From a phage, in assembly GCA_025823825.1 (NCBI GenBank), contig GCA_025823825.1_4720.1: a stretch of 64,000 nt of DNA, one strand, 5' to 3'. The notes beneath the pieces were generated by a model. It saw nothing but the letters and a program-made list of their open reading frames with translations, made no database searches and was not told where the DNA came from. Positions 3,379 through 27,235 of the stretch are shown one piece after another. The position numbers were made by a program, and so were the translations under genes. Each line of letters starts with the position of its first letter. Positions within the stretch are counted from its first letter, which is position 1.

Positions 3379-3393
3379 AAAGCGTTATTCCTC

Positions 3394-5785: not shown

Positions 5786-5892
5786 TTGGGACTCCTACGT
5801 AGGAAAATCTTGGCGGGTGATCATGTCCGCCATTTACCTTCTGAACCGTTGATTCAGAAGTCAAAAGATAACCGGATACCAATGCCATAAAA

Positions 5893-5924
5893 CCTTCCTC
5901 CAACCCAACAGGGAAGGAGGAAGG
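5893..5924. repeat. GC-rich extragenic hairpin element (CCTTCCTCC-N14-GGAGGAAGG)
   Basis: 9-bp perfect stem, loop AACCCAACAGGGAA, flanked by GCCATAA...TTATGC; between co-oriented minus genes. Confidence 0.6.
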
Positions 5925-5934
5925 GATATAGTGG

Positions 5935-7224
5935 TTATGCTTTTTCGGTCGCTGCGTTGAAGTATTTCGCTGCAGCAAATACAGCATCCGCATATTGGCG
6001 TATCGAAGCGCGAAGAATCTTGGTTGACAATACCGTACTTAAACGTGCCATTTCAGAAACCGCGCCTACATAAGGACGGATGGTTTCACGATCGGCTTCA
6101 GGCAGCTTGTCAAGCATGTCGCCCCACTTCGTTTTGATTTTCATACCGTTGAGTTTAGCGGTACGCTCCACAGAACCAGCCAAAGCTTCAACCATGTGGA
6201 AATAAGAGGGGTCGATCGTACGGAACACGTTAAGATAGGAAGTCAACGCACCTTTCAGTTCGTTATCGTCTTTGAAAATGTTTGCGTTCTCTATCTCACC
6301 GGTCACCGTCGTCTCGGCTTCAACCCGAATATTTTTCACCAACGTATAGGCTTTAATCGCGTCACGTTCGTTTTCGACGGCGTCGAGACCTTGAATAACG
6401 AAACGTTTCCCACCACTTTCTGGAAAAACAACTTTATTCAGAGCGGATTTGATAGCCAGCAGGTATTTGTCTAAGATAGACGGAAGCAGAGTTAGGTCGG
6501 TGAGGTCTGCGACCTTTTTATTGATATCGGCTACTTGCTTAAACAATGAATCCATCCCGCTTGCGCTTGCAGCGAGTTGTTCGATATGCTTGCTTGCAAA
6601 CATGGCATTCGCTGATTTCGCATTAGGGAACATATTGACCATATTTTCAGTGGGCTTATCCAGTTGTTTGATATGGCGTTCACCTTTATTCACGGCGGTT
6701 GCGATGCCGACAATTTTGTTGTATGCGACGACCAGGTTCTTGAACAGCATCTGGAGCAGTTTGAACAGTTGTTCAGCGATATTTGCAATGATTACCCAGA
6801 CGGCATATAACGCTTGCGCTGCGCGCTCTTTAAAGCCTTCCAGTACAATAGCTTGCCCTTCCACCAAACGATCGTCAGCTTGGAACATGTCTTCATCAGA
6901 CATCCCCAGGTTTGCTGCTGATGTCGAAGCAATCTGACGGATAAAGGCGACGTCGCTTGCACGTGCTTCAGGGATCGTGGGTGCGATCATATACGCTGTA
7001 TCTTCCAGTGTCGCTGATGTACGCACTGCAATCTCAGCCAGTTCGCTGGATTCATCGATTGCCTCGTCGGTACGTTGAATTACCAACTCAACTTCACCCT
7101 CTTCAATTTCTGCGTTAGGATCGTTCTGCTCCGCCGGAATCGTTGCGAGGAGATCTTCAGCACTCAGTAGAGAGAGTTCGAATGCGTTTTTATTGACGTT
7201 GTCAAAAAGAGAAATGCGGGCCAT
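5935..7224 (-). CDS. hypothetical protein, paralog family member with acidic AxE-rich N-terminus (429 aa)
   Basis: ATG with AAGGA RBS; motif SDVAFIRQIASTSAANLGM...VEGQAIVLEGFKERAAQALYAVW aligns with neighbours. Confidence 0.8.
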   Translation of the reverse strand: MARISLFDNVNKNAFELSLLSAEDLLATIPAEQNDPNAEIEEGEVELVIQRTDEAIDESSELAEIAVRTSATLEDTAYMIAPTIPEARASDVAFIRQIASTSAANLGMSDEDMFQADDRLVEGQAIVLEGFKERAAQALYAVWVIIANIAEQLFKLLQMLFKNLVVAYNKIVGIATAVNKGERHIKQLDKPTENMVNMFPNAKSANAMFASKHIEQLAASASGMDSLFKQVADINKKVADLTDLTLLPSILDKYLLAIKSALNKVVFPESGGKRFVIQGLDAVENERDAIKAYTLVKNIRVEAETTVTGEIENANIFKDDNELKGALTSYLNVFRTIDPSYFHMVEALAGSVERTAKLNGMKIKTKWGDMLDKLPEADRETIRPYVGAVSEMARLSTVLSTKILRASIRQYADAVFAAAKYFNAATEKA

Positions 7225-7233
7225 GTTAGTTCC

Positions 7234-8550
7234 TTAACCTTTGGTATAAGCGTTAACGAGAGTATTGATAAATGAAGTCAGTGCGCGAAGATATTGGTAA
7301 GCGAATTGGTTTTCAATGCGGTTCTCTTTACCACAAAGCAGAATCGCGCGCTTAACGAGCTTAGGATAGATCTCGACATACGGTTGGTAGCTTGCGTCAA
7401 AATTCTGCTCGTTGAAGCGTTTCATGGTGATTTCCTGGATACGCTCCATGGTGCGAATTTTATTGCGAGAGAATATCTCAGAGAAAGCACGTCCGCGTTT
7501 TGTTACCATCAACAAATCTTTCGCGAACGTAAGTTGTCGAACGCTACGCAAATCGTCAGGTGTTGGTAGGACGTACGTTTCTGGATCGTTATCCCATTCA
7601 ACATCTTCAACGACAATATCCAAGTCGAGGTAACGTTTAACAGCATCGATGATATTGTCTTTTGACGCATCGAATTCTTTCAAGAAGACTGCACCGTTGA
7701 CGTAGCGGATGCGTTTCCCGGAAACCGTTGGGGTGATAACATCAGCACCTTCCACGGAACCGCGATTTTCCAGTGTCGATTTGACAGCGTGCAAGAAAGA
7801 CAGATAATCAACAGGAAGTTTTTCAACCTTATCTAAATGGAAGTCGATGATGTTTAACCCTAAACCATCAATAACTGAATAACCGTCCGATTTAAGGAAC
7901 ATCTGATTGAAGGTATCAATGTTGCTTTTCAGCGCGTCTACACCACCAACGTTGTTACGGTTAGGGAAAAGCGTCCGCCACTCCGCTTTAAACGCAACTT
8001 CTTTATTTTCCTCGTATTTGCCTTTGGGCATCTGTTCGAGGGCTGCAACGGCTTTCTGAAAATTACGTGTCTCGTCGTAAACAAGACGGGTAAGCTTCTC
8101 GAAAGCTGCTGCCAGTGTCAGGGCAATATCAACAATGATATCCCAGATCTTTTTCATGGCTTTTACAACGGTGTCCTTAAACCCTTCAACAACCAAAGCT
8201 TCTCCAACTTCAACACGATCGGTTGGAGCTAACAATGTTTCAGAGGGTAGACCCAAAGCAATCGATGCGGATTCTTGAACGTTACGAACCAATGCAACGT
8301 CGCTGTAATTAGCCGATTCGATAGTCGGGGCAACATCAAAACTGATTTCCCGTAATGCTTCAACAGCAGGGAAAGCACGATCAAGTGCATCTTCATGTTC
8401 GTCGATTGTTGCCAAACGTAATTCAACACCGTCCGCGTCGATGACCTCAGCTGTCGGTTCCGCAGCAAGCGCCTCAGCAACAATAGGATATTTTTCAAAC
8501 GCCTCAAGGCTGATATCGCCTTGCGACCCAAATAGCGGTATGTGTACCAT
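7234..8550 (-). CDS. hypothetical protein, paralog family member (438 aa from ATG; track start 8574 is TTG)
   Basis: Internal ATG (MVHIPLF) preceded by GGAGA; motif SDVALVRNVQESASIALGL...VEGFKDTVVKAMKKIW parallels 5935-7224. Confidence 0.75.
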   Translation of the reverse strand: MVHIPLFGSQGDISLEAFEKYPIVAEALAAEPTAEVIDADGVELRLATIDEHEDALDRAFPAVEALREISFDVAPTIESANYSDVALVRNVQESASIALGLPSETLLAPTDRVEVGEALVVEGFKDTVVKAMKKIWDIIVDIALTLAAAFEKLTRLVYDETRNFQKAVAALEQMPKGKYEENKEVAFKAEWRTLFPNRNNVGGVDALKSNIDTFNQMFLKSDGYSVIDGLGLNIIDFHLDKVEKLPVDYLSFLHAVKSTLENRGSVEGADVITPTVSGKRIRYVNGAVFLKEFDASKDNIIDAVKRYLDLDIVVEDVEWDNDPETYVLPTPDDLRSVRQLTFAKDLLMVTKRGRAFSEIFSRNKIRTMERIQEITMKRFNEQNFDASYQPYVEIYPKLVKRAILLCGKENRIENQFAYQYLRALTSFINTLVNAYTKG

Positions 8551-8598
8551 GTGTTGTCTCCAGTAATGATTCAAAAGATAAACCTGAGCGGCATAGAA

Positions 8599-8630
8599 CC
8601 CTCTCCCAACCCGTGAGGGAAGGGAGAGGG
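8599..8630. repeat. GC-rich extragenic hairpin element (CCCTCTCCC-AACCCGTGAGGGAA-GGGAGAGGG)
   Basis: 9-bp stem; loop with inner CCC/GGG pairing around GNRA-type GTGA. Confidence 0.6.
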
Positions 8631-8652
8631 AATATGTCAGTTTATTAACTGA

Positions 8653-9984
8653 TTATTTCTGTTCTGCGTCAGCCGGTTTCTCAGCCGTCTGGCCGCCGTA
8701 CTCTTTCAGCATTTTAGCAACGCCATCCAGAACAGCATTACCTGCCTGAACACCGTACTTCATCAGGCTAACCTGCGGGTTGATGTAGCAAGAACGTGCG
8801 TCTTTCAGTGCAGACAGCACGGTTTTAACACGCTGTTTTTCCTGAGCAGAAACTTCGCCTTTCTTAGACAGTTCAGCTTCCATATCGTCGCCGAATTTAA
8901 CGGCGTCTTTGAAGCCCTGGGATTTCTTACCGATGTTACCTTTCGCAGCCAGCAGTTTATCAGCCAGTGCTTCAACACTGTTGATCACCGCAGCCAACTG
9001 GTTCGGGGACAGTACATCAGCTTCCTGTTCCATCGCGGTGATTGCGTTATTACCGCGTTCCCAGGTAACTTTACCGTCGGTGGTTTTGAATCCCCAACCG
9101 TTCGGACCTTTCACATCAGCGATCGCAGGTGCGTTCAGTTTGTCGGTGTACTCAGTATGTGATTTAGACTTAACGAGTTCAACGAATTTATCCGCACGAT
9201 CGTCAGCCGCCTTCATTGCTTTCTCGAAGGTATCTGCGATTTTGCTTGATGCGCCAGCGATATCGGTATCGCCAATGTAACCGGTAACAGTGGTGCCCAG
9301 TTTAACTTTCGCGTTCTTCGGAGAGCCTTTACGTTTGGCGATCATTTCTTTCAGTTTAGCCGCACGCGCTTTCAGTTTGGTTGCACCGTCGAAGATACGA
9401 TCGATGAACTTCACGAAGTTGTCCCAGGTGGATTTCAGGAAGTTCTTAATTGCGGTCCACAGTTTCTGCCACCATTTTTGTTCTTCCAGGAAGATCATGT
9501 TGGTTGCATCGTAACGGGAAGCGGAACCGCCGAAGCTTTCGAAGGACGGCATGGTTTCCGGCAGTTTGAAACCGATAGTACCACACAGACGTTTCAGATT
9601 ACGCATGTGTTCCTGAGCGGTTTGTGCAGACATACCGCCGTCTTTCAGGTAGCTTTCGGTCGCAACAACGGTTTCCGTCAGTTCATCCATGGCTTCGTCC
9701 ATGGCTTCTGCGGTTTCGTCGTCTTTTGCAATTTCGATAACAACGGCATCAACCTGCTCGATATCACCACGAACTTCGATAGCCAGTTCGGTTTCAGCTG
9801 CGGTATCTTCAGCAATTTCAGCACGTTCGGTCAGTTCAGCGACAACGGTTTCATCCGCTGCTGCAGCATCAGCTGCCGGTTCTGCTTCAACGGTTGCCGC
9901 TGCATCCGGATCGATTTCAGCAGCAAGTTGAACCAGCTGTGCGTTAGATGGATTTGCGACAAGACGATCAAAAATAGAAGGCAT
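8653..9984 (-). CDS. hypothetical protein with very acidic Ala/Glu-rich N-terminal third (443 aa); possible distant member of the same family
   Basis: ATG with AAAGGA RBS; N-terminal 100 aa dominated by A/E/D/T; TAA stop at 8653. Confidence 0.75.
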   Translation of the reverse strand: MPSIFDRLVANPSNAQLVQLAAEIDPDAAATVEAEPAADAAAADETVVAELTERAEIAEDTAAETELAIEVRGDIEQVDAVVIEIAKDDETAEAMDEAMDELTETVVATESYLKDGGMSAQTAQEHMRNLKRLCGTIGFKLPETMPSFESFGGSASRYDATNMIFLEEQKWWQKLWTAIKNFLKSTWDNFVKFIDRIFDGATKLKARAAKLKEMIAKRKGSPKNAKVKLGTTVTGYIGDTDIAGASSKIADTFEKAMKAADDRADKFVELVKSKSHTEYTDKLNAPAIADVKGPNGWGFKTTDGKVTWERGNNAITAMEQEADVLSPNQLAAVINSVEALADKLLAAKGNIGKKSQGFKDAVKFGDDMEAELSKKGEVSAQEKQRVKTVLSALKDARSCYINPQVSLMKYGVQAGNAVLDGVAKMLKEYGGQTAEKPADAEQK

Positions 9985-10049
9985 AATTTTGTTTCCTTTA
10001 CAATAAATTGCACATTAGCTAATGCGGCTTAAGTGAACCGTCAGTTCAC

Positions 10050-10580
10050 TTAAAAGCCCTTAAAACCCGGTGCCATAGGTTGCCCAAACACCGCATTCAA
10101 AGTACATATGATGTCCTGGATACCATTGTCCCAATGGAGCCAAGTACGCACCATCTCTTCGTCTGACAACGCGATATAACTCATAAGTTTACCGCTGCTT
10201 TCCAGACGTTGGTGTGAACTTAACGATTGACGATCTGACCAGTTATCAATCAGTTGTCCAGCAATCTGAACGTTTGTGTCTCGTCTACCCGTGTGAATGA
10301 ATCGTAGCGTATCACGGATAAACTCCAGACTGGTGAAGTTCAGATTTGGGTTATGGCTGTTCATTTCCACCCAATCGGTGATGGGGTACATCAAACGATA
10401 AAGGGTAGAAAGAACCTGACGCTCATATTTCCAATCATCGAGAGGAGTACCGTCGACCAAACGCTGATACAAACTAACAACGTCACGATCGTAGTTCTCC
10501 TGGCGTTTTACGCCGTTAACCGGAAATCCAAAGAACCCGGTACCGTATAACGTTAAAGGGACGTCACGAAGTGCACTCAT
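10050..10580 (-). CDS. hypothetical protein (176 aa from internal ATG)
   Basis: Track start 10712 is TTG and would overlap upstream gene by 136 nt; internal ATG at 10580 forms an ATGA overlap with the stop of 10577-11479. Confidence 0.6.
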   Translation of the reverse strand: MSALRDVPLTLYGTGFFGFPVNGVKRQENYDRDVVSLYQRLVDGTPLDDWKYERQVLSTLYRLMYPITDWVEMNSHNPNLNFTSLEFIRDTLRFIHTGRRDTNVQIAGQLIDNWSDRQSLSSHQRLESSGKLMSYIALSDEEMVRTWLHWDNGIQDIICTLNAVFGQPMAPGFKGF

Positions 10581-11479
10581 ACAGCCGCCTCTTCTTTTCG
10601 TTTGATGTCGTAACGAAGTTTCTTCAGCCTGTCTTCGTGATATTCGATCTGCTGCTGGATTTTTGGATCGTTGCCCGCATTCTGTTGCTTTTGCTTCAGT
10701 GACAAAATCCAATACTCCAGCGCTTGGGCTTCTTCTTTGGCTGCTTGTAATGATGCTTCTTCACGTTCGCTGCGCCAGATACGGAAACGGTAAACAAGCG
10801 TGTCGGTTACATCGCCGTTAGCCCACGAACCCATACGCATCGGGTCAGTATTACCCGCATTGTACAATCCGTTACCAACACCGTCTTCATCAGAAACCAC
10901 GACATCCGGGATTTTATCCAATCCAGCAAGGATCTGTTGTTTCTGTCCACATAGCACCTCGGTGGCAACGGCGAAACCGTACATATTGGCGGTCAGGTAA
11001 GCAATCTCGTTTTTGGTGAAGAACTCACCAAGTGCTTTATCACCACCCGGCATGCTTTCGCAGATGACCGTCGCACGAAGCAGCGTACGAGCGTAGCTAA
11101 CGTAGAAGCCCAGAGACTCAACAAGACGTACCAGAGCGGCTTCTTTGAAACTCAGACCGTCAGCAGCAACATCGATTTCCAGGTTTTTGTTAACGCGTTT
11201 AACAATTTCTGGAATCAGATCAACAGCATTACGTAGCGCTAAGTGAACGTTTTCTACCCAGCTTCCAGAGCGAACGCGGGTTAAACGCTGGTGCAGATCC
11301 TTATCAGCAAGTTTCCATAGGGCGCTTTCACCCTTTTGGAGAAGCGAAGCGGATGTCTCGTAGTAAGGAATCGCGGTGTTGTTGATTTCGTCACGGATTG
11401 ATTCGAGTGCGTCAGCAACACCTGTGCGTTTAAAAAGCGGCTTCAAACCGCGAATGAATTCTTTAAAATCAATTGCCAT
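10577..11479 (-). CDS. hypothetical protein (300 aa)
   Basis: ATG with AGGTG upstream; no recognisable motif. Confidence 0.75.
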   Translation of the reverse strand: MAIDFKEFIRGLKPLFKRTGVADALESIRDEINNTAIPYYETSASLLQKGESALWKLADKDLHQRLTRVRSGSWVENVHLALRNAVDLIPEIVKRVNKNLEIDVAADGLSFKEAALVRLVESLGFYVSYARTLLRATVICESMPGGDKALGEFFTKNEIAYLTANMYGFAVATEVLCGQKQQILAGLDKIPDVVVSDEDGVGNGLYNAGNTDPMRMGSWANGDVTDTLVYRFRIWRSEREEASLQAAKEEAQALEYWILSLKQKQQNAGNDPKIQQQIEYHEDRLKKLRYDIKRKEEAAV

Positions 11480-11518
11480 GAGTGAGCACCTATGCTATTT
11501 CGAAACAGGTTGCGAGTG

Positions 11519-12625
11519 TTAACGAATCTGTGGGACGTTTCCGGTACGGAGCGCCTGGAGGATCGTCAGGAGATCGGAACCCGAGGTTGACGAACTGTTG
11601 GATTTTTCCAGTTGCTTGAAGCTTACGGTGGTCCCTTGATCCAAGCTGTGGAAATAGAAGGTCACCATCTCTTCAGCTTCGTCGATGATGATCAACTGCA
11701 TTGCGAGGGCTTCAGCCATGACTTTCTGACGTGTGTTATAGTCAGATAAACGACGTCCGATCTTACGCTCGATGGCTTCCTGGTTAGCCTTAGAGATGAT
11801 ATAGGTGGAGGCGATTGCTCCAGAAGAAGGGATCTTTGTGCTCGCTGCAGCTTTTGCGGCATTGATGCGCGCAGCATTAACAGCCTTGCGGATACCCTCT
11901 TTATCCATACGTGAGATTCGTTTATGCTCACGAACCAGATCGCTAAGCAGGATCATATCGCTCCAGAAAGACAGCTCACCAGCCATCATGCGATGCCAAC
12001 GTGCTCGCCAGGTGTTCTGTGGGCCACCGATCGCTAAAATCGCTGCAAGCACTTCCGCCGGTGAACTCGCGATACGCATGCTGATGTTCAATGGCATTTT
12101 CATCGTTGCCTGACCATCGGTCAGCGTCACGGTTAAGAACTTGCCGGTGACCGCGTTCGCATCTTTGTTCAGCAATTCGATCGCTGCGTCGCTGGCTCCA
12201 ACATCGGTGCTATTTTTTTGTTTCCCCAGCAGGTTGAATCCTTTGTCATCAAGGAAAACAAGGCTTTTGCTATCCGCACTTTCCAGTGCTAATTTGACAG
12301 CCTTATCCATCAGATTAGCGTTACGATTTGGGTTCACACGACCCAGCGTTTTATCGACACTGATATTACCCACCTGCATGATGGTGTTCAACGCCAGTAA
12401 ATAGAACCCGGTATACATGTTTTCAGCGGTGCGCATGCAGTTGCCTAACGCATTGCGTGCGTCGCTATAATACAACTCACGTTCAAAGATCAGCGGTGCG
12501 ATAACGCGTGAAGGTTGTGAGAGTTCAACCAGCGAACCTGGCTGGATAAGTTTATTAACTTCGTAGACTTTAGCGATACCGGACGCAACAACGTTAACAG
12601 CGTCGGCAATTTCTGATGCTACCAT
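11519..12625 (-). CDS. hypothetical protein (368 aa)
   Basis: ATG with AAGGA RBS; start is only about 34 nt from the divergently oriented start at 12660. Confidence 0.75.
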   Translation of the reverse strand: MVASEIADAVNVVASGIAKVYEVNKLIQPGSLVELSQPSRVIAPLIFERELYYSDARNALGNCMRTAENMYTGFYLLALNTIMQVGNISVDKTLGRVNPNRNANLMDKAVKLALESADSKSLVFLDDKGFNLLGKQKNSTDVGASDAAIELLNKDANAVTGKFLTVTLTDGQATMKMPLNISMRIASSPAEVLAAILAIGGPQNTWRARWHRMMAGELSFWSDMILLSDLVREHKRISRMDKEGIRKAVNAARINAAKAAASTKIPSSGAIASTYIISKANQEAIERKIGRRLSDYNTRQKVMAEALAMQLIIIDEAEEMVTFYFHSLDQGTTVSFKQLEKSNSSSTSGSDLLTILQALRTGNVPQIR

Positions 12626-12659
12626 ATTGAAATCCTTATTTACAAATAAAGGAAAGAAA

Positions 12660-13865
12660 ATGTCTAATTACTACGACCAAGCTATTCAAACCATTCAGGA
12701 GAATAATGCGTCGTTAACACCCGAAGCTGTGGAGGCAGCGGGCAATGCGGTGTTATTCACTGATTCGGATTGGGCAATAGCGCGGAAGAATATTCGTACC
12801 AGTGTCGGTCAAGGGACATACGAGGACAGTATCGCCAGACGGTATCGGAATGTGTCACCTATTCCAGGGAACAGCCCGATTCCGATTAACCGCGATCATG
12901 CCGGTATTACCTTCTTTACACGACCTAATTTACATCTTACCGACGCGAACTTAAAACGAGATCGACGTTTGTGGTCGTTACGCACGGATAACCCTAACAG
13001 TATTCAGGCTGTTGTCCGCGACTACTTGGACCCTGTGGGTGCCAGAAAGCGGAACCATCGAGGACGTGCCATCGTCGATGAGCGCAATCCATTCATAAGT
13101 ATACTGACGGACAACCTGACGGATATCAGCGGTTTCAATGACATGGAAATGCAGGTCTATCAGGGCAAACCGGGATTACGCCAAGAAACCGTTGTGATGG
13201 CTGACGGTTCAGTGGATATGTTTCAACCCTATAACCTGAACGCGACGTTCAAGAACATCATGGGTAACCCCATCATGTTCCTTCATTATATTTGGTTGAT
13301 TTACATCGCTGGTGTGCATAATGGCGAACTGACGCCAAGCCCTCAGGCCATCATTGATAATGAGATGGATTACTGGACAAGATGTTATCGTATCATCTTG
13401 GATCCGACTGGGATGTATGTTCGTTATATCTTCGCACCGACCGCGATGTTTCCTGTCGGACTACCGATTGGTAATATGGCCAACTACAGCATCGATAAAC
13501 CCTTCACGCAAGATAACGAACGTATCACTATTCCATACCAAGCGGTTGGTAACAACGCATTTGATGAGATTCTGAAGGATGAATTCAATCGACTTGTCCT
13601 GATGTTCTATTACGGTGAGAACGATACCCGTACGTTCCTTGAAGATGAGGAGTTGGTACCTATCTCACCCTACGAGCGTCGAATCATGTCGTATCGTGTC
13701 GATATGTATCCATTTATTCATCCGTTGACCTCAGAGCTTCTTTGGTTCGTACCCGCTGATGATTACAACGAATTCTATCTGGATCTTGAGCCGTCGGCGT
13801 TACCACCGGATACGTTCAGTCGCGATCTTGTCCGTACCACCATTCCGCAAAATTACGAGGGATAA
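12660..13865 (+). CDS. hypothetical protein (401 aa from ATG; track start 12627 is TTG)
   Basis: ATG preceded by AAAGGAAAG; first gene of a two-gene plus-strand island. Confidence 0.75.
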   Translation: MSNYYDQAIQTIQENNASLTPEAVEAAGNAVLFTDSDWAIARKNIRTSVGQGTYEDSIARRYRNVSPIPGNSPIPINRDHAGITFFTRPNLHLTDANLKRDRRLWSLRTDNPNSIQAVVRDYLDPVGARKRNHRGRAIVDERNPFISILTDNLTDISGFNDMEMQVYQGKPGLRQETVVMADGSVDMFQPYNLNATFKNIMGNPIMFLHYIWLIYIAGVHNGELTPSPQAIIDNEMDYWTRCYRIILDPTGMYVRYIFAPTAMFPVGLPIGNMANYSIDKPFTQDNERITIPYQAVGNNAFDEILKDEFNRLVLMFYYGENDTRTFLEDEELVPISPYERRIMSYRVDMYPFIHPLTSELLWFVPADDYNEFYLDLEPSALPPDTFSRDLVRTTIPQNYEG

Positions 13866-13868
13866 TAA

Positions 13869-16862
13869 ATGAGCGTAACCAACAAAGATCTTGCTGAACA
13901 GCTCAATCGCTATATGCTTTCACCTATTGAAATGCAGGCTGTTGCAAGCGATATGATCCGTTTGGCTTCTGATGGTGAATTAACCCTGGTTGATCCCAGC
14001 TGTCCGTTTGTTTATCTGCTGGAGGTTGCAACGGCGACGGCGGCGAACCAGAACGCGCGGGATGAGTCCCGTGTTCGCGAACTGTATCCAAAACTTGCGA
14101 CCAACTGGAGCCAGCTTTATCGTTGGATGTATGATGAGTCGTACGTTGGACGTTTCGCAATGCCGGGTAAAACGGAAATCATCTATTCGTTAGGGTATCA
14201 GGAAATCCTCGATCGTGCTGTAGAGATTCCCAACACCATCGCCTCCGATGATTTAAGCCGTTCTTACAGCCGTAAGTTAGTGATACCACGTACGACGGCG
14301 TTTACGGTGGCTGGGATGGATTTCGGGTTGCATTATCCCATCGAAATCCAAGTACAAGCGCACGACCAGATACGTGTCGTTTATAACACTGATAACATCA
14401 GCCCATTGCAAACCTTGGAGAGTAACCAAGTTGAGTATGGGGTTGTTCGTGTAAAAGCGGGTAAAGTGTTGGTGATGCGTATCCCGCTGTTCCAGTTTAA
14501 AACGCTGGTAAAAGATGTGCCGTTTAACAGCGTTCACGGGATGAACAGCAGCATTACCTTCGAAGATCAGTTTTACCATTGTCGTGCGTACATGTCGTCG
14601 GATAACGATACCTGGACGGAGATAGCGACAACACACAGTCAGCAGATCTACGATCCGTTAACACCAACTATCGCGTTACAAGTAGAAGGGAACAAACTTA
14701 ACTGGCGTGTTCCTGAAATTTATTTGTCTCAAGGTACGATGGATAAAAGCACCATTCGACTTGAGGTGTTGACGACGAAAGGGAAAATCAGCGTCGACCC
14801 GTCTGATTACGACGTGACCGATTGGAAAGATAACTACATCGATTTGTCACCAAAAGCTGAACAGAAATACAGTGCGCCGCTAAGTGCGTTCAACATTAAA
14901 GGGATTTATAGCGAAGGGGCATTGTCGGGTGGGCGATCTGCGTTAACGTTCGAGGAACAACGTGAACGTGTTATGGCGGGCGTGAACAAAACCAAGGTAC
15001 CGATCACGGGAACGCAGGTAGAGCTGGTGCTTCAAGATGCGGGCTATGGGATGGTGACCACCATCGACAACGTAACCAATCGTTCGTTCCTGGCAACCCG
15101 AGATTTACCGCAATTGAGCGACAGCGTGCCGCAAGCCGGTTCGTTGATGGGGTCTTTCTATACGTCAGCTGCAGCATTGGTGAAAAGTAAGTTTGTCGCT
15201 GATAACGGCGATCGTATTACGATTAAACCTGACTGCCTGTATCGTGACAGTAACGGAAGTATCACACTGTTGTCAGACGATGAAATTGACCGTATTAATG
15301 CAGGCAACTCCGATGCGAAGTTGAACGCGGTAAACAACGCCATGTTGTTTTACAGTCCGTTTCATTACGTATTAGACGCAACAAGCGATTTCGACATACA
15401 TGCTTATTACCTGGATGCCCCTAAGATCGGCACGCAAGCATTCCTCGACGCGAACGAGACAATCCCGTTAACCGCTATGGTGACCGGATACCGTCTGGAT
15501 CGTATCGCCGAAGGATATCGTCTAAGCCTCATTGTAGAAGGTAACGACGCATGGAAAGCGCTCGACGATAAAAACGTGCACATCCAGCTGGGGTTCAATC
15601 CGCGTGGTGAGGGTGATTACGCAACGATGTTAGCATCGCCTACAACCGATGAACAAGGTCGTCGTTTGTTCACTTTCGATATCACCACGAATTATGATTT
15701 TACACGAATCCTGGCCGATGATTCCACGGCGTATGAACCATATATCGCATTGACTTCGTTCTCGATGTATGAATCGACACCGCGGGATTATTGGGCATCA
15801 CTGCAGCAGTATTTGGAAATATTCCATGTGGTGACGGATTACGCGCCGGAAGATGTCGACGGTATCTTACACAGCGCTTCCGATAATTACCTGGTTAAGA
15901 AACTCACGCTTCAAAATGGGTATTGTTTCTACCGTGAACGTCTCACCGCAACCTTTGGTTATGATCTGGATGGTCTTTGGATGCGCTCACGTACGGTGGC
16001 CTCGGAGATTACGTATAAACGTTACACCGAGAACATTCCGTGGGTGTATGATGAAGATATCCCAGCGACGGATGAGACCGGTTCTGTTATCATCGAGCAG
16101 GGTGACGATGGTACGTTGTCGGTTAAATATCTGCATCGTAAAGGTGACCCGAAATTAAACAGTGATGGAAGCCAAGCCTATCGTTACTTGAAAGGCGACA
16201 TCATGAAAGATAATTACGGTAATCCGATCCCCGTCGATGAACGTGAGGTTCTGCGTAACCTGGACATGTTCTTTATTGATGCGTCGTATCTGTTAGCGAA
16301 CGATACAGACGTGATTGAGTATCGTAACGCGATTCCTACGCAGCTTATCGAATGGATCCAGAACGATATCGACACGTTCAGGAATTTCTGTTACGAAGAA
16401 ACAGAGATTTCATTGTATCCTAAGCAATCGCTGGGGTATGTGGATGTTATTGTGGAAAACGGATTGGAAACGACGCTTCCTGCCGCCCTCTCGTTCAACG
16501 TGACACTGTACTTACCAGCTAAGCAATACGCTGACCTGGATTTACGTCAAGTCCTTCAAGCGATGGTATCGAAAGTCATCAATGAATGCTTGACATCCCG
16601 TACAGTAGCTAAAGCAGAAATGATCGCGATGATTCGTGAGGAAGGAGGTGACGACATCCTGAACGTTGAAATCGATGATTTTGGACCAGGTAAGAACCTC
16701 AGTGTTTATACCGCGAAGAACGACGGTGTTCGTTGTGCGGTGAAGAAAGAGCTTTATGTGAAAGCGGATGGTATCTTGTCCGTACGTGAAGCGATCGATG
16801 TAAGTTTTGTGAAACATGCACAAAGCAACAGCACAGCGTTAGCGCAAGGCCTTCGTGTTTAA
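13869..16862 (+). CDS. large hypothetical protein (997 aa)
   Basis: ATG 3 nt after upstream TAA, GAGGGA RBS; no recognised motif. Confidence 0.8.
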   Translation: MSVTNKDLAEQLNRYMLSPIEMQAVASDMIRLASDGELTLVDPSCPFVYLLEVATATAANQNARDESRVRELYPKLATNWSQLYRWMYDESYVGRFAMPGKTEIIYSLGYQEILDRAVEIPNTIASDDLSRSYSRKLVIPRTTAFTVAGMDFGLHYPIEIQVQAHDQIRVVYNTDNISPLQTLESNQVEYGVVRVKAGKVLVMRIPLFQFKTLVKDVPFNSVHGMNSSITFEDQFYHCRAYMSSDNDTWTEIATTHSQQIYDPLTPTIALQVEGNKLNWRVPEIYLSQGTMDKSTIRLEVLTTKGKISVDPSDYDVTDWKDNYIDLSPKAEQKYSAPLSAFNIKGIYSEGALSGGRSALTFEEQRERVMAGVNKTKVPITGTQVELVLQDAGYGMVTTIDNVTNRSFLATRDLPQLSDSVPQAGSLMGSFYTSAAALVKSKFVADNGDRITIKPDCLYRDSNGSITLLSDDEIDRINAGNSDAKLNAVNNAMLFYSPFHYVLDATSDFDIHAYYLDAPKIGTQAFLDANETIPLTAMVTGYRLDRIAEGYRLSLIVEGNDAWKALDDKNVHIQLGFNPRGEGDYATMLASPTTDEQGRRLFTFDITTNYDFTRILADDSTAYEPYIALTSFSMYESTPRDYWASLQQYLEIFHVVTDYAPEDVDGILHSASDNYLVKKLTLQNGYCFYRERLTATFGYDLDGLWMRSRTVASEITYKRYTENIPWVYDEDIPATDETGSVIIEQGDDGTLSVKYLHRKGDPKLNSDGSQAYRYLKGDIMKDNYGNPIPVDEREVLRNLDMFFIDASYLLANDTDVIEYRNAIPTQLIEWIQNDIDTFRNFCYEETEISLYPKQSLGYVDVIVENGLETTLPAALSFNVTLYLPAKQYADLDLRQVLQAMVSKVINECLTSRTVAKAEMIAMIREEGGDDILNVEIDDFGPGKNLSVYTAKNDGVRCAVKKELYVKADGILSVREAIDVSFVKHAQSNSTALAQGLRV

Positions 16863-16883
16863 AACAAAATAGCGTGAGCATAA

Positions 16884-16915
16884 CCCTCCTCCAACCCGTA
16901 AGGGAAGGAGGAGGG
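16884..16915. repeat. GC-rich extragenic hairpin element (CCCTCCTCC-AACCCGTAAGGGAA-GGAGGAGGG)
   Basis: Canonical copy between convergent genes; flanks GCATAA/TATGC extend the palindrome. Confidence 0.65.
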
Positions 16916-16924
16916 AATATGCTG

Positions 16925-19717
16925 TTATCTTACGTTATTGCTATTCTGTTGTTCACTGAACCAACCATACACCTTGAGATCGGTACCGTATTTCAATGCG
17001 ATATACGCATTCAGCGCAGCACAGAACAAAGACGCGAATGCCCATATCAGCGAAGGATCAACATCTTCCGTTACCACTGGGAGAGTATTATCCGGTTCCC
17101 ATGATGGTGAACTGTCCATGAACGTCGCGTACCATCCCCGCCGTTGTTCTTCGGTGGTAAAGTCGCTGTGGGGTTCCAATGCTTCTTTTGCCAGACGTCG
17201 ATATTCGAACATATGCGTTGCTAAAGCCGACGAGTTACCAGATTCGCCTTCATAGTTCGGATCCACCGCATAACAGAGTTCTGTTGAATCTAACAAAGCA
17301 ACCGCCTGTGTGATGCTGTCGGCAGTGCCTGCACCATAGAGCTCGATAGACCGCGAAAGCTTCTCACAGAACGCATTTAACGCGGAAGGATTGGACACCT
17401 GAAGGTCAAGGCCTAATGTCCACGGATAGTTACTGAATACACCCGTAAACCGTGGCATAACACCCAACAGATGCTGTCCGATTACAGCGCGGTTATAAAC
17501 AGCCCTGTTATAGACTTGAAACGCAGCCTCCAAGGCTTGGTTATAATGACGACGAAGTTCGTCACGCGAGTTGCGGAATCTGTTTGCCGCGAGACTCGTG
17601 GCTGCGACGCTACAAACATCGTAATTGGTGGACGAGAGCACAACCTCGTTAAGATCGAACGCTTCCTGTTTCAATGTTCCGCTAACAGCCACCGCTTCGC
17701 TGTTCGCTTTATCGACAACAGTACTCAAAGCGTTGATGTAACGCTTAGCCCGGACTTCCAGCCATTGTGCGATGCCGAGAATATCCACCGCAGCTTTAGC
17801 AAGATCGCGAGCATTCACGATTTCGTTCTTCAACGCCCCTAAATCTTTATTTTCAGGCGATGAGGCTTGTTGACGAATCATGCTGTTCAACATGGTAAGC
17901 AGATTATCCAACTCATGTCCACTGACCTTGTTACGTGCATCGGTAATCGGCCCTTGCAGGAATTTACGGCAACCATCGTTGTATCGAATCAGTTTATCCA
18001 CATCGATAGATTCGTTCGTGGATTCCTTGAACTGATTCTTCAATTCTTCACGGTAATCATGGATTTCACTTGCGAGATTATCGATAGTGATACCGTTATG
18101 TCCAAGAAGAACTTTATTGAAGTTACCTTTCTCGAATGCCAGAGCAAGACCTTCACGAATCTTAGCGAGTTTATCCTGATCGAGTTCACGACCGTTCGAT
18201 AGCTCTTTCACTTCCGAGCTGATTAATGCCGAAACGTTACCCAGATTGTCGGTAACCCCTTTGAACGCTCCCGACCAAATCGTTCCTGCTTCAGCGTATT
18301 TCGCAATGGTCTGAATACCGACGGTGTGCAGCGACGCTAAACGTTTCTTCGTGCCTTCGGTAAGCAGAGCGTCTTTAGCTCGCGTAAGCTGACTGTTATT
18401 AGCTTCTGCCTGCTGAATCGCTGCTTTCGCACTTCCATTACGCCAGCTCTTAACCAGCCAATCAACCAAACGTTTTAGGATATTGACGGTGTATTCCATT
18501 GTCCGCCGTAACGTTTCCCACGCGCTTTCTGCGGTATAGATGCCGTACCCTTCCATCTTCGTTGGGTCAAAGAAACCTTCCTGCATGAGATCAATACGGG
18601 TGTAGCCATCAGCAGCTTCTACTTCCGCCTGGGTTTTATCCCAGAAGTCGTCGCTCTTTGCAGCAACCGCTGTATCTTTAACGTCCAGGATGATCTGACC
18701 AACCGTTTGTGCAAACAGCAAGGCCGCACGTACCGATTGTGCGAACATCCGCTGATATTTGATTCGAACGCATTGCATCTGGGTTAGCAGATTCAGTTGT
18801 GCGATCCCATCCAAGGTGCTATCCTGAGCAAGCCCTTCGGCTTTAGCGATAACCTGTTTTACACGTTCAGCGACATCACCATACTGCTGGCAAACATCCC
18901 GCAGAATACGTGCCGCGAAGACCCCGGTACCGATATAGTTCAATAGGTCTTTTAACGACCATTCGGTCGGACAATCGGTCGGCGCAATAGGGAGTAAGCA
19001 ACCATCACCGTCCATGAATCTCTCTAATGCGCTAATATCCTGATTTTCTACGCTCATGGGGATATCGACATCAGCCGCTTGCAGATCCAGCATCTGTTGT
19101 AGGATGTTGGTATCGGCTTGTACAAGCGTCGCAAGCGCTTGGCTGTGTGCGATTATTGGTAACGCAGGTGACCATACTGCAGCAAGCTTGTCGGCGTGAC
19201 GTTGAATGGCATACCCCATATCCTCGATCACATCGGGATGCTCGATAACCCCCTGAAGCGTTTGATGTAGCTCACCGAGTTGCTGAGACAGATCGACCAT
19301 CATGGTGTTGAAGGTTTCGCCATCCTCTTTGTGGTTGTCCAGACGCTCGAGTTCATGTCGAAGCAATGTGACGAGCTGTCCGTTGCCTTCTTGCTTCAGC
19401 TTGCTTTCCATTAACGTAATGGCTTTATCGACGATCTGACACGCTTCACGAAAACCGGTTGTGGAAGGAAGCTCTGTCCATAACGCCAGCGGTTTACCGT
19501 CAAGGGCTTCCGGCATCGATAACGAAAGCATAGACAGTTGTTGACGTGATACTTGCTGTTCACGGTGTAGTGTTTCTTTTAACGCCAAGAGATCGTCAAG
19601 AAACGCGCCGTTAAGGGTGGTCGTACGCGGTGTTGAATTAATACCGTCAGTTAACGATTCAAGCACCAGGAGACCGTTATCAGCTGAAGAGAGTCCCGCG
19701 GCAAGATATTTGTTCAT
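16925..19717 (-). CDS. large hypothetical protein (930 aa)
   Basis: ATG with upstream ACGGAG; long uninterrupted frame. Confidence 0.8.
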   Translation of the reverse strand: MNKYLAAGLSSADNGLLVLESLTDGINSTPRTTTLNGAFLDDLLALKETLHREQQVSRQQLSMLSLSMPEALDGKPLALWTELPSTTGFREACQIVDKAITLMESKLKQEGNGQLVTLLRHELERLDNHKEDGETFNTMMVDLSQQLGELHQTLQGVIEHPDVIEDMGYAIQRHADKLAAVWSPALPIIAHSQALATLVQADTNILQQMLDLQAADVDIPMSVENQDISALERFMDGDGCLLPIAPTDCPTEWSLKDLLNYIGTGVFAARILRDVCQQYGDVAERVKQVIAKAEGLAQDSTLDGIAQLNLLTQMQCVRIKYQRMFAQSVRAALLFAQTVGQIILDVKDTAVAAKSDDFWDKTQAEVEAADGYTRIDLMQEGFFDPTKMEGYGIYTAESAWETLRRTMEYTVNILKRLVDWLVKSWRNGSAKAAIQQAEANNSQLTRAKDALLTEGTKKRLASLHTVGIQTIAKYAEAGTIWSGAFKGVTDNLGNVSALISSEVKELSNGRELDQDKLAKIREGLALAFEKGNFNKVLLGHNGITIDNLASEIHDYREELKNQFKESTNESIDVDKLIRYNDGCRKFLQGPITDARNKVSGHELDNLLTMLNSMIRQQASSPENKDLGALKNEIVNARDLAKAAVDILGIAQWLEVRAKRYINALSTVVDKANSEAVAVSGTLKQEAFDLNEVVLSSTNYDVCSVAATSLAANRFRNSRDELRRHYNQALEAAFQVYNRAVYNRAVIGQHLLGVMPRFTGVFSNYPWTLGLDLQVSNPSALNAFCEKLSRSIELYGAGTADSITQAVALLDSTELCYAVDPNYEGESGNSSALATHMFEYRRLAKEALEPHSDFTTEEQRRGWYATFMDSSPSWEPDNTLPVVTEDVDPSLIWAFASLFCAALNAYIALKYGTDLKVYGWFSEQQNSNNVR

Positions 19718-19732
19718 AAAACACTCCGTTGG

Positions 19733-19764
19733 CCCAGGGGAAGGTTTTCAGCCTTCCCCTAGGG
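19733..19764. repeat. GC-rich intergenic hairpin (AGGGGAAGG-TTTTCAG-CCTTCCCCT), variant loop
   Basis: Stem of 9-12 bp between 16925-19717 and 19777-22581. Confidence 0.5.
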
Positions 19765-19776
19765 TTATAAACACAA

Positions 19777-22581
19777 TTAAGCTAATTTACCGAAACCGGC
19801 TTTCTGCAGTTTCTCGTTGATCAGTTTTGCTTCCGCGAAAACATAATCACGATACGCAGTCACTAACGCATCCACACGTGAACGCAAGGCTTCTTCGAAG
19901 CTATACCACGCAGCGATTTCACGAATCTGTGCGTTGATATAATCAACGGTTGAGCGAAGCTCGGTTGCGTTTTCTTGCGGGATGGCTTTCACCTGGCGAG
20001 CAACGTCATTTAAACGACGGAACTGCGTTTCGATTTCTTTAAACTTACTGTCGGCAAGTTTGCTGAATTCGTCACCGGAACGTGTAAATAACAGATAGCT
20101 GTTGCCGTCAAGTGCGGTCGCTAACTGCTGAAGTACGTTGGTGTCCGGATACACAGGAGTACCGCTTTGCAATACTTTCTCACCGAATTCCGCGAAGTCC
20201 TTCGGCGGTAAGTGCGCAGACGTTGTCAACTCGTTGAAACGGAAAGTCAGCGAATTGTCATACAGCATCCGGTACGCTTCCATGCCCTGTTTCATGGTAC
20301 CAGCCAGGTTGGCCAGACGCGGAGCAATCTCACCCTCTTTAGCGCGTTTCTGGTCTTCTAACGCCCCTTCCAGTTCTTTACACTGGTCATTCAGATACAC
20401 GATACGATCGGGACGCAGACGACGCATCTCACGAAGAATAGTATCCAGCTTACCTTCCTGGAAATAACCCAACGTTAAAGACGTACACGCTTGCTGAAGA
20501 CGATCGAAGACCGGTAAGGTCACCATCTCCTTACGGATACCATCAACAATCGCAGAAACAGCCGAAAGTTTCTGTTCTGTCGTTAATGGAACATCAGAGA
20601 CCGACTTGCTGGGCGCACCAACAACGTTACGCATTGCGTCGGTATCCTCGGTTTTATCAACCTCTTTACGAACATGCTCATCAGGAACATAAACGTTCGC
20701 ATTACGTTTCGCCTGCTTGATGGCATCGTTGGCCGCTTTTTCGGTGGCTGCTACGCTATCGGCACGTTTCTTCAAGAGTTCAATAATCCAGAGCACCAGA
20801 CGACGAATCGCAGTGTAGGCTGTCGTGATGATGACACCGATAACCGCCATCTTCATGATACCGAACGATTCCATGGTCGGCTCTAACGCCTGGTCGGGCA
20901 TATACCGTTCACGCAGCTCCAGATAGATCTGCTCATCCGGTTTGCTGATCTCGCCACGATGCGAAGTCCGATAGATGGCTTCGTCAATCTCAACAAGATC
21001 TTTGCGTGCCTGACGGTCTGTTTCGGTCAAATAAGCGCAGCCGGATACGTCGTCTTCAAAACTTTCGAACTTAAAGAAATCGACAACCATCTTGGCAAGC
21101 GCCTCTTTCTTAGCAGGATCGAGTGTCTTCGCATCTTCTTTTTGCTTATCCATTTTTTCCTTGAATTTCTCTTTGTAGTCATTCAAGGGTTTTACCGCTC
21201 TTGCTTTCAACGCGTTATAGATAGCTTTCCACTCATCGTTACGTTCGAGGACAATGAAATGGTTTTTGAGTTCGAAAGCGCGATAGCGTGCAACGAGCTG
21301 TTCTACCTGAATATGAGCGAGTTGGATATCCATTAACCAACGCGACATCGCCGAGATCAAACGGCTATAAGCGAACAACGTTTGGTAGGTTAACTTCATG
21401 TATGTTTCATACAGCTCAATATCGCCGCTCTGAATATTGGCTGTTGGATTCATTTCCTTTGTTGCCTTGAAGACCTGTTCTGCTTCTCTCAGCGTCTTTT
21501 CGAACTTAACGTCATTAAACGCAGTGAATGGTTCAGCCAACTCATGCATTTTATCGTGGAGTTCGCGGATCCAAGCTTCCTTGCTGTCGCGGATGGTGTT
21601 TTCATCATGGAGCACGGTTTGATGTTTTCGTACCCATTCTTCCACGATATCAGCAGCGGAAACAATCGGAACGCGATCTGAAATGAGCGGGACGATCGTG
21701 TGAAGCGCCCCGACACATTCTGGCGTGTCCCAGTGTTTCTGGAGTTCATCACGGAAACGGTTAATGTTTTCTAAGGTGGTACCTAAATCAAGGAAAGTGC
21801 CGCCATTATGACTCATCTGTGCAACCAGATCGGCAAATACCTTTTGTTTTTCGATGACAAAAGGAACCATCCGCATAAGCCATTCAGCAGTTGCTTTAGC
21901 CTTTTCTTTCAGGTTCTTATCAGCGATTTCCTTAAGGTTAATCGCGCTACCGTATCCAGCAAGTTCGTTGTAGACGTCGTTAAGCGTCATTTGTTTATCC
22001 AACATTTCTTTGAAACGTGGATAATCTGCACCTAACGCGTCGATGACTTCTTGGATGATGTCGTCTGTGGTAGCGATAAATTTATTTGTGCCGCCGTAAT
22101 GCTTCCAGATTTTCTGCAGCGTCTTCTTAAAGAATTCGAAGACGAATGTCCAGATACGTTTGATGAGTTCCCAGACTTTCTTCGCACCATCGACAAACAG
22201 TTTAGAGACCTTGGCAACGAATCCTTCCTGCACTAACTCAACGCCGTTACGTGATGGGATTTCCGTGAAGAAAGCATCTGGCAGTTGTTTCGGGAACGCA
22301 TCACCAAGACGCATACGCAATTCGGGTACATCGGCACGAGAAATACCACGCGTCGTTAGCTGCTCGTGAAGACGAACGTTTTCTTCACCAGAGGCTACGA
22401 ATTCGTTAACGTCAAATGAAACCAGTTCTTGATCTTCGGTGGTAACGACGCTTGAACCATCGCTGGTTTGGATGTCTTCGTCAGGGAACGCCATGAGCAT
22501 ACCGTGACGCATTTCAACCACTCCGTAATCGGTTGCTAAACCGAATTCGTTGTGATCGGGGGTAATAACTGGGATACTCAT
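19777..22581 (-). CDS. large hypothetical protein (934 aa)
   Basis: ATG preceded by AAGGAGAG; ATGA overlap with stop of 22578-23018. Confidence 0.8.
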   Translation of the reverse strand: MSIPVITPDHNEFGLATDYGVVEMRHGMLMAFPDEDIQTSDGSSVVTTEDQELVSFDVNEFVASGEENVRLHEQLTTRGISRADVPELRMRLGDAFPKQLPDAFFTEIPSRNGVELVQEGFVAKVSKLFVDGAKKVWELIKRIWTFVFEFFKKTLQKIWKHYGGTNKFIATTDDIIQEVIDALGADYPRFKEMLDKQMTLNDVYNELAGYGSAINLKEIADKNLKEKAKATAEWLMRMVPFVIEKQKVFADLVAQMSHNGGTFLDLGTTLENINRFRDELQKHWDTPECVGALHTIVPLISDRVPIVSAADIVEEWVRKHQTVLHDENTIRDSKEAWIRELHDKMHELAEPFTAFNDVKFEKTLREAEQVFKATKEMNPTANIQSGDIELYETYMKLTYQTLFAYSRLISAMSRWLMDIQLAHIQVEQLVARYRAFELKNHFIVLERNDEWKAIYNALKARAVKPLNDYKEKFKEKMDKQKEDAKTLDPAKKEALAKMVVDFFKFESFEDDVSGCAYLTETDRQARKDLVEIDEAIYRTSHRGEISKPDEQIYLELRERYMPDQALEPTMESFGIMKMAVIGVIITTAYTAIRRLVLWIIELLKKRADSVAATEKAANDAIKQAKRNANVYVPDEHVRKEVDKTEDTDAMRNVVGAPSKSVSDVPLTTEQKLSAVSAIVDGIRKEMVTLPVFDRLQQACTSLTLGYFQEGKLDTILREMRRLRPDRIVYLNDQCKELEGALEDQKRAKEGEIAPRLANLAGTMKQGMEAYRMLYDNSLTFRFNELTTSAHLPPKDFAEFGEKVLQSGTPVYPDTNVLQQLATALDGNSYLLFTRSGDEFSKLADSKFKEIETQFRRLNDVARQVKAIPQENATELRSTVDYINAQIREIAAWYSFEEALRSRVDALVTAYRDYVFAEAKLINEKLQKAGFGKLA

Positions 22582-23018
22582 GCATTCTCTCCTTGCAGTG
22601 CGTTAGCGAAAGCCGTTGCAAGTTGCGCAACCAGTTTCGGATCAACGCCTTCGATAACGTCAGGCAGCCCTGCGGTTTCTTGGTCACGAACAGCGGAGGC
22701 TAATAACAGCATGGTTTCAGGTGCGGTCGGCTCATGCACCATGCGGTAACGCAGGCACCAGAAGTAGCGAGCAACGTCTAACGCATCAGCCAGCCCGATA
22801 ACCAGTACCTTGTTCAGCTTATCCAGCCCTTCACGGATTTTAGGGAGATGTTCGCGAACGAAAATGCTATCTGCGGTCAGATCTTCTTTTTCAGCGAATA
22901 CCGGCATGCTGTAACCGGCGATGTAACCAGCGGCAATACTTAACGCGCGGGTCTGTTGTTCGGCTGGGAAGTCACGTACCAGGTCTTTCAGCTGAACGGC
23001 GAAATCAGAAATATTCAT
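22578..23018 (-). CDS. hypothetical protein (146 aa from internal ATG)
   Basis: Internal ATG (MNISDFAV) has AAAGGAA 8 nt upstream and avoids overlap with 23050-24360. Confidence 0.6.
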   Translation of the reverse strand: MNISDFAVQLKDLVRDFPAEQQTRALSIAAGYIAGYSMPVFAEKEDLTADSIFVREHLPKIREGLDKLNKVLVIGLADALDVARYFWCLRYRMVHEPTAPETMLLLASAVRDQETAGLPDVIEGVDPKLVAQLATAFANALQGENA

Positions 23019-23049
23019 GTTAAATTCCTTTATAGTAAAATAGAAGAGA

Positions 23050-26892: not shown

Positions 26893-27186
26893 TTAAAAGA
26901 TATCAAGCCATGAGGATGGAGGAACCAGTTCGCTGGTAAAGTAATCGCCACTGATACCACTATCATCAAAGTGACGTTCGTTGTAACACTGGACGAGCTT
27001 ACCTCCACGTTCTTTCTGATACCATCCAAGGATACTATTAAGACCTCTGTCCACGCATTCGAATGCTTGAGTAATAACATCCTCAACGACGGAGGCTGCC
27101 GTGGGACCATTGAATAGACGATCTAAGCGCTTTTTCATCGATTTGGTTTTCTCGTTCATGATTTCTTTTCCTGTTATAATCGGCAT
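26893..27186 (-). CDS. small hypothetical protein (97 aa)
   Basis: ATG start; RBS candidates inside adjacent hairpin arm (GGAAGGG) or internal AGGAAAAG before a second ATG. Confidence 0.55.
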   Translation of the reverse strand: MPIITGKEIMNEKTKSMKKRLDRLFNGPTAASVVEDVITQAFECVDRGLNSILGWYQKERGGKLVQCYNERHFDDSGISGDYFTSELVPPSSWLDIF

Positions 27187-27190
27187 ACAA

Positions 27191-27222
27191 CCCTTCCCCG
27201 GCCTTGACGGCTAGGGAAGGGG
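27191..27222. repeat. GC-rich extragenic hairpin element, degenerate copy (CCCTTCCCC...GGGAAGGGG)
   Basis: Imperfect stem, flanked by GGCATACAA...CTATGC. Confidence 0.45.
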
Positions 27223-27235
27223 CTATGCTACGTTG

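Follow-up and report, generated by a model that had tools for sequence, protein, structure and literature searches.

We analyzed a stretch of phage DNA of 64,000 nucleotides (nt), here termed the window, in which two plus-strand genes (12660-13865 and 13869-16862) are enclosed by genes of the opposite orientation. The two genes were found to constitute a baseplate operon, encoding a tail tube initiator and a baseplate wedge protein, set among genes whose products are head-internal, injected or part of the vertex complex. It is highly probable that the locus as a whole represents a conserved two-gene baseplate operon that diverges from a head-internal operon and is closed by a bidirectional terminator of the type found in its phage family. 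For the specific site proposed here as the transcription start of the head-internal operon, in the 5' part of the first baseplate gene, we see an even chance.

From 11000 to 17500 the window was 97.8% identical in nucleotide sequence to Escherichia phage vB_EcoM_Goslar (genus Goslarvirus), which belongs to the Chimalliviridae, the nucleus-forming jumbo phages (core-genome paper; Goslar structure preprint, bioRxiv 10.64898/2026.04.21.720040). The genes 11519-12625, 12660-13865 and 13869-16862 correspond to gp61, gp62 and gp63 of the Goslar GenBank record, which notes a weak similarity to phiKZ ORF089, ORF088 and ORF087, respectively. An initial annotation of the window had described gp62 and gp63 as transcribed opposite to their surroundings, and both the map of open reading frames (ORFs) and the sequence bear this out. 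Among the sizeable genes of the ORF listing, these two were the only ones on the plus strand within 1-24360; the genes on their left (1 to 12625) and on their right (16925 to 24360) all read on the minus strand.

Identity and conservation of the plus-strand genes

The gp62 protein scored 267.5 bits with the Pfam family PF23971 (Phage_TTP_15, putative tail tube protein), for which the cut-off is 27 bits (E = 2e-79, residues 35-371). It matched the PDB chain 11lx_AJ, "Tail Tube Initiator Protein gp62", over its full length (E = 2.5e-278), and PHIKZ088 (9xqs_I) with an E value of 1.2e-50. For gp63 the matches were to the PDB chain 11lx_Aq, "Baseplate wedge protein" (E = 0, residues 1-997), to PHIKZ087 (9xqs_A; E = 1.1e-170, residues 12-985) and to phrog_3248 (8e-288). 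The gp63 gene starts 3 nt past the gp62 stop codon, and its GAGGGA Shine-Dalgarno sequence is located inside the end of gp62.

Six copies of phiKZ gp88 or Goslar gp62 assemble into a ring between tail tube and baseplate hub, capping the tube on that side (PMC13250141; bioRxiv 10.64898/2026.04.21.720040). Each of the six wedges in phiKZ consists of two gp87 conformers and one gp128, a heterotrimer arranged around a three-helix bundle (PMC13250141). The Goslar paper equates gp62 and gp203 with the tube initiators gp48 and gp54 of T4 (bioRxiv 10.64898/2026.04.21.720040). When gp62 and gp63 were searched against PDB chains, only Goslar and phiKZ chains were returned and no T4 protein matched. The phiKZ wedge of two gp87 and one gp128 parallels the (gp6)2-gp7 wedge core of T4. 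The gene neighborhood differs, as the island lies within a head-protein block, unlike the baseplate cluster of T4.

On the left side, gp61 is the first gene of a leftward run encoding head-internal and injected proteins. The gp61 protein is present in more than 200 copies per virion and is injected into the host, and gp60 is likewise a high-copy, host-injected protein (bioRxiv 10.64898/2026.04.21.720040). Of the other minus-strand neighbors, gp53-gp58 are PF12699 "inner body"-type proteins, while gp59, gp65, and gp66 belong to the capsid vertex-binding complex. Since the flanking minus-strand genes serve another part of the virion, the island is a baseplate operon within a head-protein block. 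Transposon data from phiKZ revealed gp87 to be without insertions and orf89 to be essential. A PDB search returned no relatives of gp61 or gp64, and gp64 (930 residues, 16925-19717) had no match in PHROG or Pfam either. A marginal similarity was seen between gp64 and its neighbor gp65 (19777-22581, a gp86 homolog; BLASTP E = 0.01).

The same layout, i.e., a leftward gp89-like gene, rightward gp88-like and gp87-like genes and a leftward next gene, was common to all relatives examined. These were phiKZ, 201phi2-1, PhiEaH1, OBP, the SPN3US-like EC001, Bacillus phage AgentSmith and Kosakonia phage Kc263, together with 16 further IMG/VR loci; by tblastn the gp62 family was found in 295 phage records. 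In phiKZ (NC_004629.1, 83676-90157) the homologous genes gp89, gp88, gp87, and gp86 have the order and orientation of the window, and the divergent gap is 39 nt compared to 34 nt. The Goslar-like phages carry the additional gp64 between the island and gp65, whereas gp86 directly adjoins the island in phiKZ. The N-terminal region of the Goslar-like gp62 is also longer than that of phiKZ gp88.

The initial annotation regarded the arrangement as unusual and suggested a comparison of gene order to see whether the island is an inversion. A recent inversion, or a horizontally acquired (moron-like) cassette in the window phage, would fit the orientation of the island, which opposes about 12 kb of genes on its left and about 7 kb on its right, and would fit its being bounded by a terminator of its own. 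However, none of the relatives examined, with protein identities of about 27-36% and a Bacillus phage among them, differed in order or orientation. Island and flanks have the same GC content (0.46-0.49), and the GC skew tracks the coding strand. Both genes encode baseplate parts, and phiKZ gp87, the counterpart of gp63, was free of transposon insertions. A recent inversion or acquisition is contradicted by these data and has next to no probability. The arrangement is instead the standard layout of the family, formed by structurally characterized baseplate genes. This matters little beyond annotation: the oddly oriented pair is a tail-tube initiator/wedge operon whose layout was shared by all chimallivirus relatives examined. 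What was seen at the locus, from gene functions and synteny to compact promoters and terminator motif, has been published before and is standard for the family.

The divergent gap and the start codons

The minus-strand ATG of gp61 ends at 12625 and the plus-strand ATG of gp62 is located at 12660. The distance of about 34 bp between the starts, as initially annotated, is therefore correct, and the gap of 34 nt has the sequence ATTGAAATCCTTATTTACAAATAAAGGAAAGAAA. Both other divergent junctions in the window are longer, at 221 and 90 nt. The gap contains a Shine-Dalgarno sequence for each gene. That of gp61 is TCCTT at 12633-12637 (AAGGA on the minus strand), 7 nt from the ATG at 12625, while that of gp62 is AAGGA at 12649-12653, 6 nt from the ATG at 12660. 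The two sites are separated by an A/T-rich spacer of 11 nt.

The tight gap would be an annotation artefact if one of the genes started further in, with ordinary promoters located in a real intergenic region. The gp62 ORF does contain alternative in-frame starts at TTG 12627, where the longest ORF opens, GTG 12729 and GTG 12750. Furthermore, the N-terminus of Goslar gp62 is about 21-35 residues longer than that of the homologs, and the cryo-electron microscopy chain 36za_hB spans only residues 37-397 of gp62. On the other hand, the ATG codons at 12660 and 12625 are both preceded by a good Shine-Dalgarno sequence, whereas the next in-frame starts, GTG 12729 for gp62 and TTG 12475 for gp61, both lack one. 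Residues 4-12 of gp62 (YYDQAIQTI, within the motif YYDQAIQTIQ) fit the N-terminal motif of all homologs (EFLDQIIQNI in phiKZ, DFINQIIKNS in 201phi2-1, and NYLNQITQNS in one IMG/VR group), and residue 13 of gp61 aligns to position 14 of its PHROG profile. The Goslar GenBank annotation has identical starts for both genes, and an equivalent gap of 25-41 nt was found in 18 other loci from diverged phages. The initial annotation had pointed out that another start placement might give a normal intergenic region. We checked this and it does not hold, as the Shine-Dalgarno sequences, the N-terminal motif, and the Goslar annotation all agree on ATG 12660 and ATG 12625. Mis-annotated starts are contradicted by the data and we consider them very improbable.

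Gap lengths in the relatives (Table 1) were determined after start checks by Shine-Dalgarno sequence and N-terminal conservation. The sole longer gap was that of AgentSmith, 109 nt as annotated, where the annotated starts were taken as given. An inverted pair of Shine-Dalgarno sequences was present in the homologous gap of each of the 18 other loci, and a comparison of the gaps across loci revealed nothing conserved besides these two sites. The only close relatives are Goslar and near-identical IMG/VR contigs. Because the next relatives are about 35% identical in protein, footprinting of the junction at the nucleotide level is impossible. RNA folding of the gap was no better than for shuffled sequences (z -1.07 and +1.54). 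No RNA structure at the junction was significant; a weak palindrome there consists of the two opposed Shine-Dalgarno sequences.

Transcription start sites at the divergent junction

The gap was initially considered too short for two canonical promoters. This holds for sigma-70 promoters, none of which are present: sites with -35 and -10 hexamers spaced by 16-18 nt were absent within about 240 nt of 12626-12659. Across 8000-24000 such sites were depleted, with 10 found compared to 20.4 ± 4.7 in shuffled sequences. The host sigma-70 RNA polymerase could be thought to drive both genes through a compact bidirectional promoter, and a perfect TATAAT hexamer is located at 12466-12471 on the plus strand. 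The absence of two-hexamer sites around the gap and their depletion in the region contradict this, as does the development of phiKZ, which is independent of the host RNA polymerase and rifampicin-resistant (PMC4666361). Late transcription of Goslar is carried out in the phage nucleus by the phage non-virion polymerase, as published. We therefore regard sigma-70 promoters as extremely unlikely at this locus. Reasoning on intergenic length from sigma-70 promoters is not applicable to phages with their own RNA polymerases, and it is not relevant at this junction because these phages bring their own. The initial conclusion that transcription initiates within coding sequence or from compact promoters nevertheless stands in so far as both alternatives are known practice in the family; only its sigma-70 premise is irrelevant.

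Transcription in the phiKZ family depends on phage-encoded multisubunit RNA polymerases, and the late promoter of the non-virion polymerase is TATG only, with the G as +1 (PMC4666361; PMC12809450). The late promoters mapped in phiKZ by ONT-cappable-seq have TATG at +1, with starts embedded in the coding sequence of the divergent neighbor (Putzeys et al., 2024). The phiKZ transcription unit TU072 runs from 88779 (+) to 91723 and comprises PHIKZ089-090-091 (bioRxiv 10.1101/2023.10.13.562163). Positions 88776-88779 of NC_004629.1 read TATG and lie inside the gp88 ORF (87905-88954, opposite strand); the start is 175 nt away from the first codon of gp88, and the gp89 ATG follows 215 nt downstream. 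Since the mapped start at 88779 is located within gp88, the leftward gp89 operon of phiKZ initiates inside the coding sequence of the divergent gene. Divergent late start sites also overlap for phiKZ gp83/gp84, at 81932 (+) and at 81893 and 81969 (-) (bioRxiv 10.1101/2023.10.13.562163).

By analogy, phage polymerases and not the host enzyme would transcribe both operons of the window from compact promoters. The leftward gp61 operon would most likely start in the 5' coding sequence of gp62, with the minus-strand TATG at 12817-12820 as the candidate promoter. Barring one that overlaps the gp61 start codon, this is the sole minus-strand TATG within 400 nt upstream of gp61. It is antisense in codons 53-54 of gp62 (Thr-Tyr), compared to Ser-Tyr in the NLSYDN of phiKZ gp88, and with the G at 12817 as +1 it would give a leader of 192 nt, compared to the mapped 215 nt in phiKZ. 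A candidate start site of the gp61 operon, 12817 on the minus strand, is thereby obtained as a by-product of the analysis. In 5 of 15 non-phiKZ lineages (this window, 201phi2-1, one IMG/VR group, OBP, and Kc263) a TATG lies on the minus strand at the distance corresponding to that in phiKZ, ±25 nt. Given how often antisense TATG occurs in the island body, about 7% would be expected (binomial p 0.003, or 0.014 with OBP and Kc263 merged). This enrichment is suggestive only.

The gp62-gp63 transcript would most likely originate from a phage promoter other than TATG, located in the gap or in the early part of the gp61 coding sequence, a few hundred nt in at most. In phiKZ 32 of 149 start sites are without a recognizable motif (PMC10914365), and for this reason a non-TATG phage promoter is likeliest for gp62-gp63. 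Two matches to the middle-promoter motif of phiKZ, AAanTTACc / AAnTACT, which precedes starts by about 20 nt, were rejected as chance matches. From the TTAC at 12641-12644 in the gap the start would fall past the gp62 ATG, and from AAAATTACG at 13849-13857 it would fall past the gp63 ATG.

Several points weigh against this assignment of promoters. Both start sites at the junction of the window are inferred. The ONT-cappable-seq tables of phiKZ contain no start site or transcription unit for gp88-gp87 (bioRxiv 10.1101/2023.10.13.562163), and in the window no plus-strand TATG was found within 737 nt upstream of the gp62 ATG. The phiKZ gap carries a plus-sense TATG, which the gap of the window lacks and which is not kept in another phiKZ relative (L023). 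With respect to the enrichment, the distance window was chosen after the hits were known, and the signal comes in part from Tyr codons (e.g., Ser-Tyr, TCA TAC, in NLSYDN). Finally, in the phiKZ promoter table the "50bp upstream region" column was one row off for P042-P047 and was re-registered by genome mapping. The sequence listed for P047, for example, has its end at the P046 start site, 88779, and one sequence, ending at 88530, was without a matching coordinate.

A published 3' end of phiKZ, T042 at 87899 (+) of NC_004629.1, coincides exactly with the junction of gp88 and gp87 and is antisense to the island; it belongs to no assigned transcription unit. Within the window TATG occurred at 3.3-3.6 per kb on the sense strand compared to 1.55-1.8 per kb on the antisense strand, for both gene orientations, and both strands were below the mononucleotide expectation of 4.5 per kb. 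Codon usage, or selection acting against late promoters on the antisense strand, could underlie the strand bias.

If both start placements hold, the two divergent transcripts would overlap at their 5' ends. The junction could then be a selected regulatory device, in which start sites in the opposite gene and antisense-overlapping leaders of about 200 nt couple the head-internal/injected operon to the baseplate operon. Such coupling would act by transcriptional interference between colliding polymerases or by RNA-RNA pairing, setting timing or stoichiometry, and would explain the conserved spacing of 25-41 nt beyond genome compaction. The narrow range of gap lengths across very diverged phages is in agreement with this, and the gp89 leader of phiKZ is antisense to 175 nt of gp88. 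Antisense TATG was also more common in the first 400 nt of gp88-like genes (at least one in 13 of 16 loci) than in the island body (1.42 per kb). However, compaction alone accounts for the short gaps, the neighboring same-strand gaps being 3-62 nt, and the gap has neither conserved sequence past the two Shine-Dalgarno sites nor a fold above that of shuffled sequences. We find a regulatory device unlikely at this junction.

The putative terminator and further elements of the window

The baseplate operon ends at a hairpin (16884-16915), as already proposed in the initial annotation, with the sequence CCCTCCTCC-AA-CCC-GTAA-GGG-AA-GGAGGAGGG. The predicted fold is strong (-33.5 and -34.4 kcal/mol for the plus and minus strand, respectively; z about -6.9) and none of 200 shuffled sequences was as good. 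The hairpin is flanked by GCATAA (16878-16883) and AATATGC (16916-16922), which extends the palindrome to 16878-16922, so that on either strand a GC-rich stem-loop precedes (T/A)TATGC.

The terminator motif of phiKZ is BCCYCCCCHWWDGGGRRGGBYTTATKYYGT, and bidirectional terminators are located between convergent phiKZ genes (PMC10914365). The window element resembles these in having a GC-rich C/T-then-G/A stem between convergent genes, with the tails TATGCTGT on the plus strand and TTATGCTCA on the minus strand. Relative to TTATKYYGT, the plus-strand tail ATATGCTGT matched at 8 of 9 positions, while the minus-strand tail matched at 7 of 9. The predicted stem is longer than that of the phiKZ motif: 9 + 3 bp, interrupted by an AA/AA internal loop and closed by a GTAA loop. 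All eight loci folded had a GC-rich hairpin in the convergent gap that follows the wedge gene. Flanks of the type CATA(A)/TTATG were clear in the window, phiKZ (CATAA and TTATG), 201phi2-1, OBP, and Kc263, whereas PhiEaH1, EC001, and AgentSmith had a stem followed by a T-rich TTTTAT/TTTTTAT tail instead. Unit TU069 of phiKZ has its end at 84982, within the homologous convergent gap (bioRxiv 10.1101/2023.10.13.562163). We infer that the hairpin functions in Goslar as a family-type terminator on both strands; the hairpin-plus-TATGC element would thereby also stop the convergent gp64 transcript.

Further hairpins of the window (Table 1) are GC-rich, are followed by (T)TATGCCG/TATGGC on the transcribed strand and fit the phiKZ terminator motif. 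The tail of this hairpin family includes the late-promoter core TATG, and judged from its sequence the element could in principle both terminate and re-initiate transcription.

Table 1. Features of the locus, further hairpins of the window and divergent gaps in relatives.
Feature	Position	Strand or length	Basis
gp61 (phiKZ gp89 family)	11519..12625	-	phrog_3239, 1.3e-61
Head-to-head gap	12626..12659	34 nt	two back-to-back ribosome-binding sites
gp62, tail tube initiator (phiKZ gp88)	12660..13865	+	Pfam PF23971, PDB matches
gp63, baseplate wedge protein (phiKZ gp87)	13869..16862	+	PDB matches, phrog_3248
Putative bidirectional family-type terminator	16878..16922	both strands	fold and phiKZ motif
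Candidate late promoter TATG for the gp61 operon	12817..12820	-	analogy with phiKZ
Further hairpins with TTATGCCG-type tails	5893-5924, 8599-8630, 27191-27221, 31684-31723, 37894-37925, 43027-43056, 51951-51975, 58806-58833
Divergent gap, this window		34 nt
Divergent gap, phiKZ		39 nt
Divergent gap, 201phi2-1		36 nt
Divergent gap, PhiEaH1		28 nt
Divergent gap, IMG/VR loci		27-41 nt
Divergent gap, OBP		25 nt
Divergent gap, EC001		25 nt
Divergent gap, Kc263		27 nt

Elsewhere in the window, the gene for a DNA polymerase (exonuclease-domain) at 24582-26333 was found to be one continuous ORF of 583 residues. The corresponding Goslar gene (27077-28862 region, L001) is split by about 1.8 kb carrying gp69, a NUMOD1/HNH endonuclease gene, and gp68 comprises 499 residues. 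The phage of the window is thus without the homing-endonuclease insertion of Goslar, the junction being near 26074-26097.

Modules of the sequence TTTCACG(A/G)CTA(C/T)ATTAC were located on the minus strand at 31134-31155 and 55270-55291, upstream of genes starting at 31063 and 55201. They resemble the early-promoter core of phiKZ, TATATTAC, and downstream of each come a hairpin and a near-identical leader, GCAACCAATCC(G/A)ATATAA(G/A)AGGATGTCAAG-ATG. From their sequence, the two modules are likely early promoters of a small set of paralogous genes.

Rfam and tRNA scans of the window returned no hits. At 30585-30612 (-) a classical intrinsic terminator, GGTGGGGTTCGCCCCACC followed by T10, was observed, unlike the hairpin-plus-TTATG elements of the family. 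A run of ten G (GTCGAGGGGGGGGGGTAATATG) at 48059-48080 (-) is located upstream of the gene starting at 47970 and could be a slippage-prone tract.

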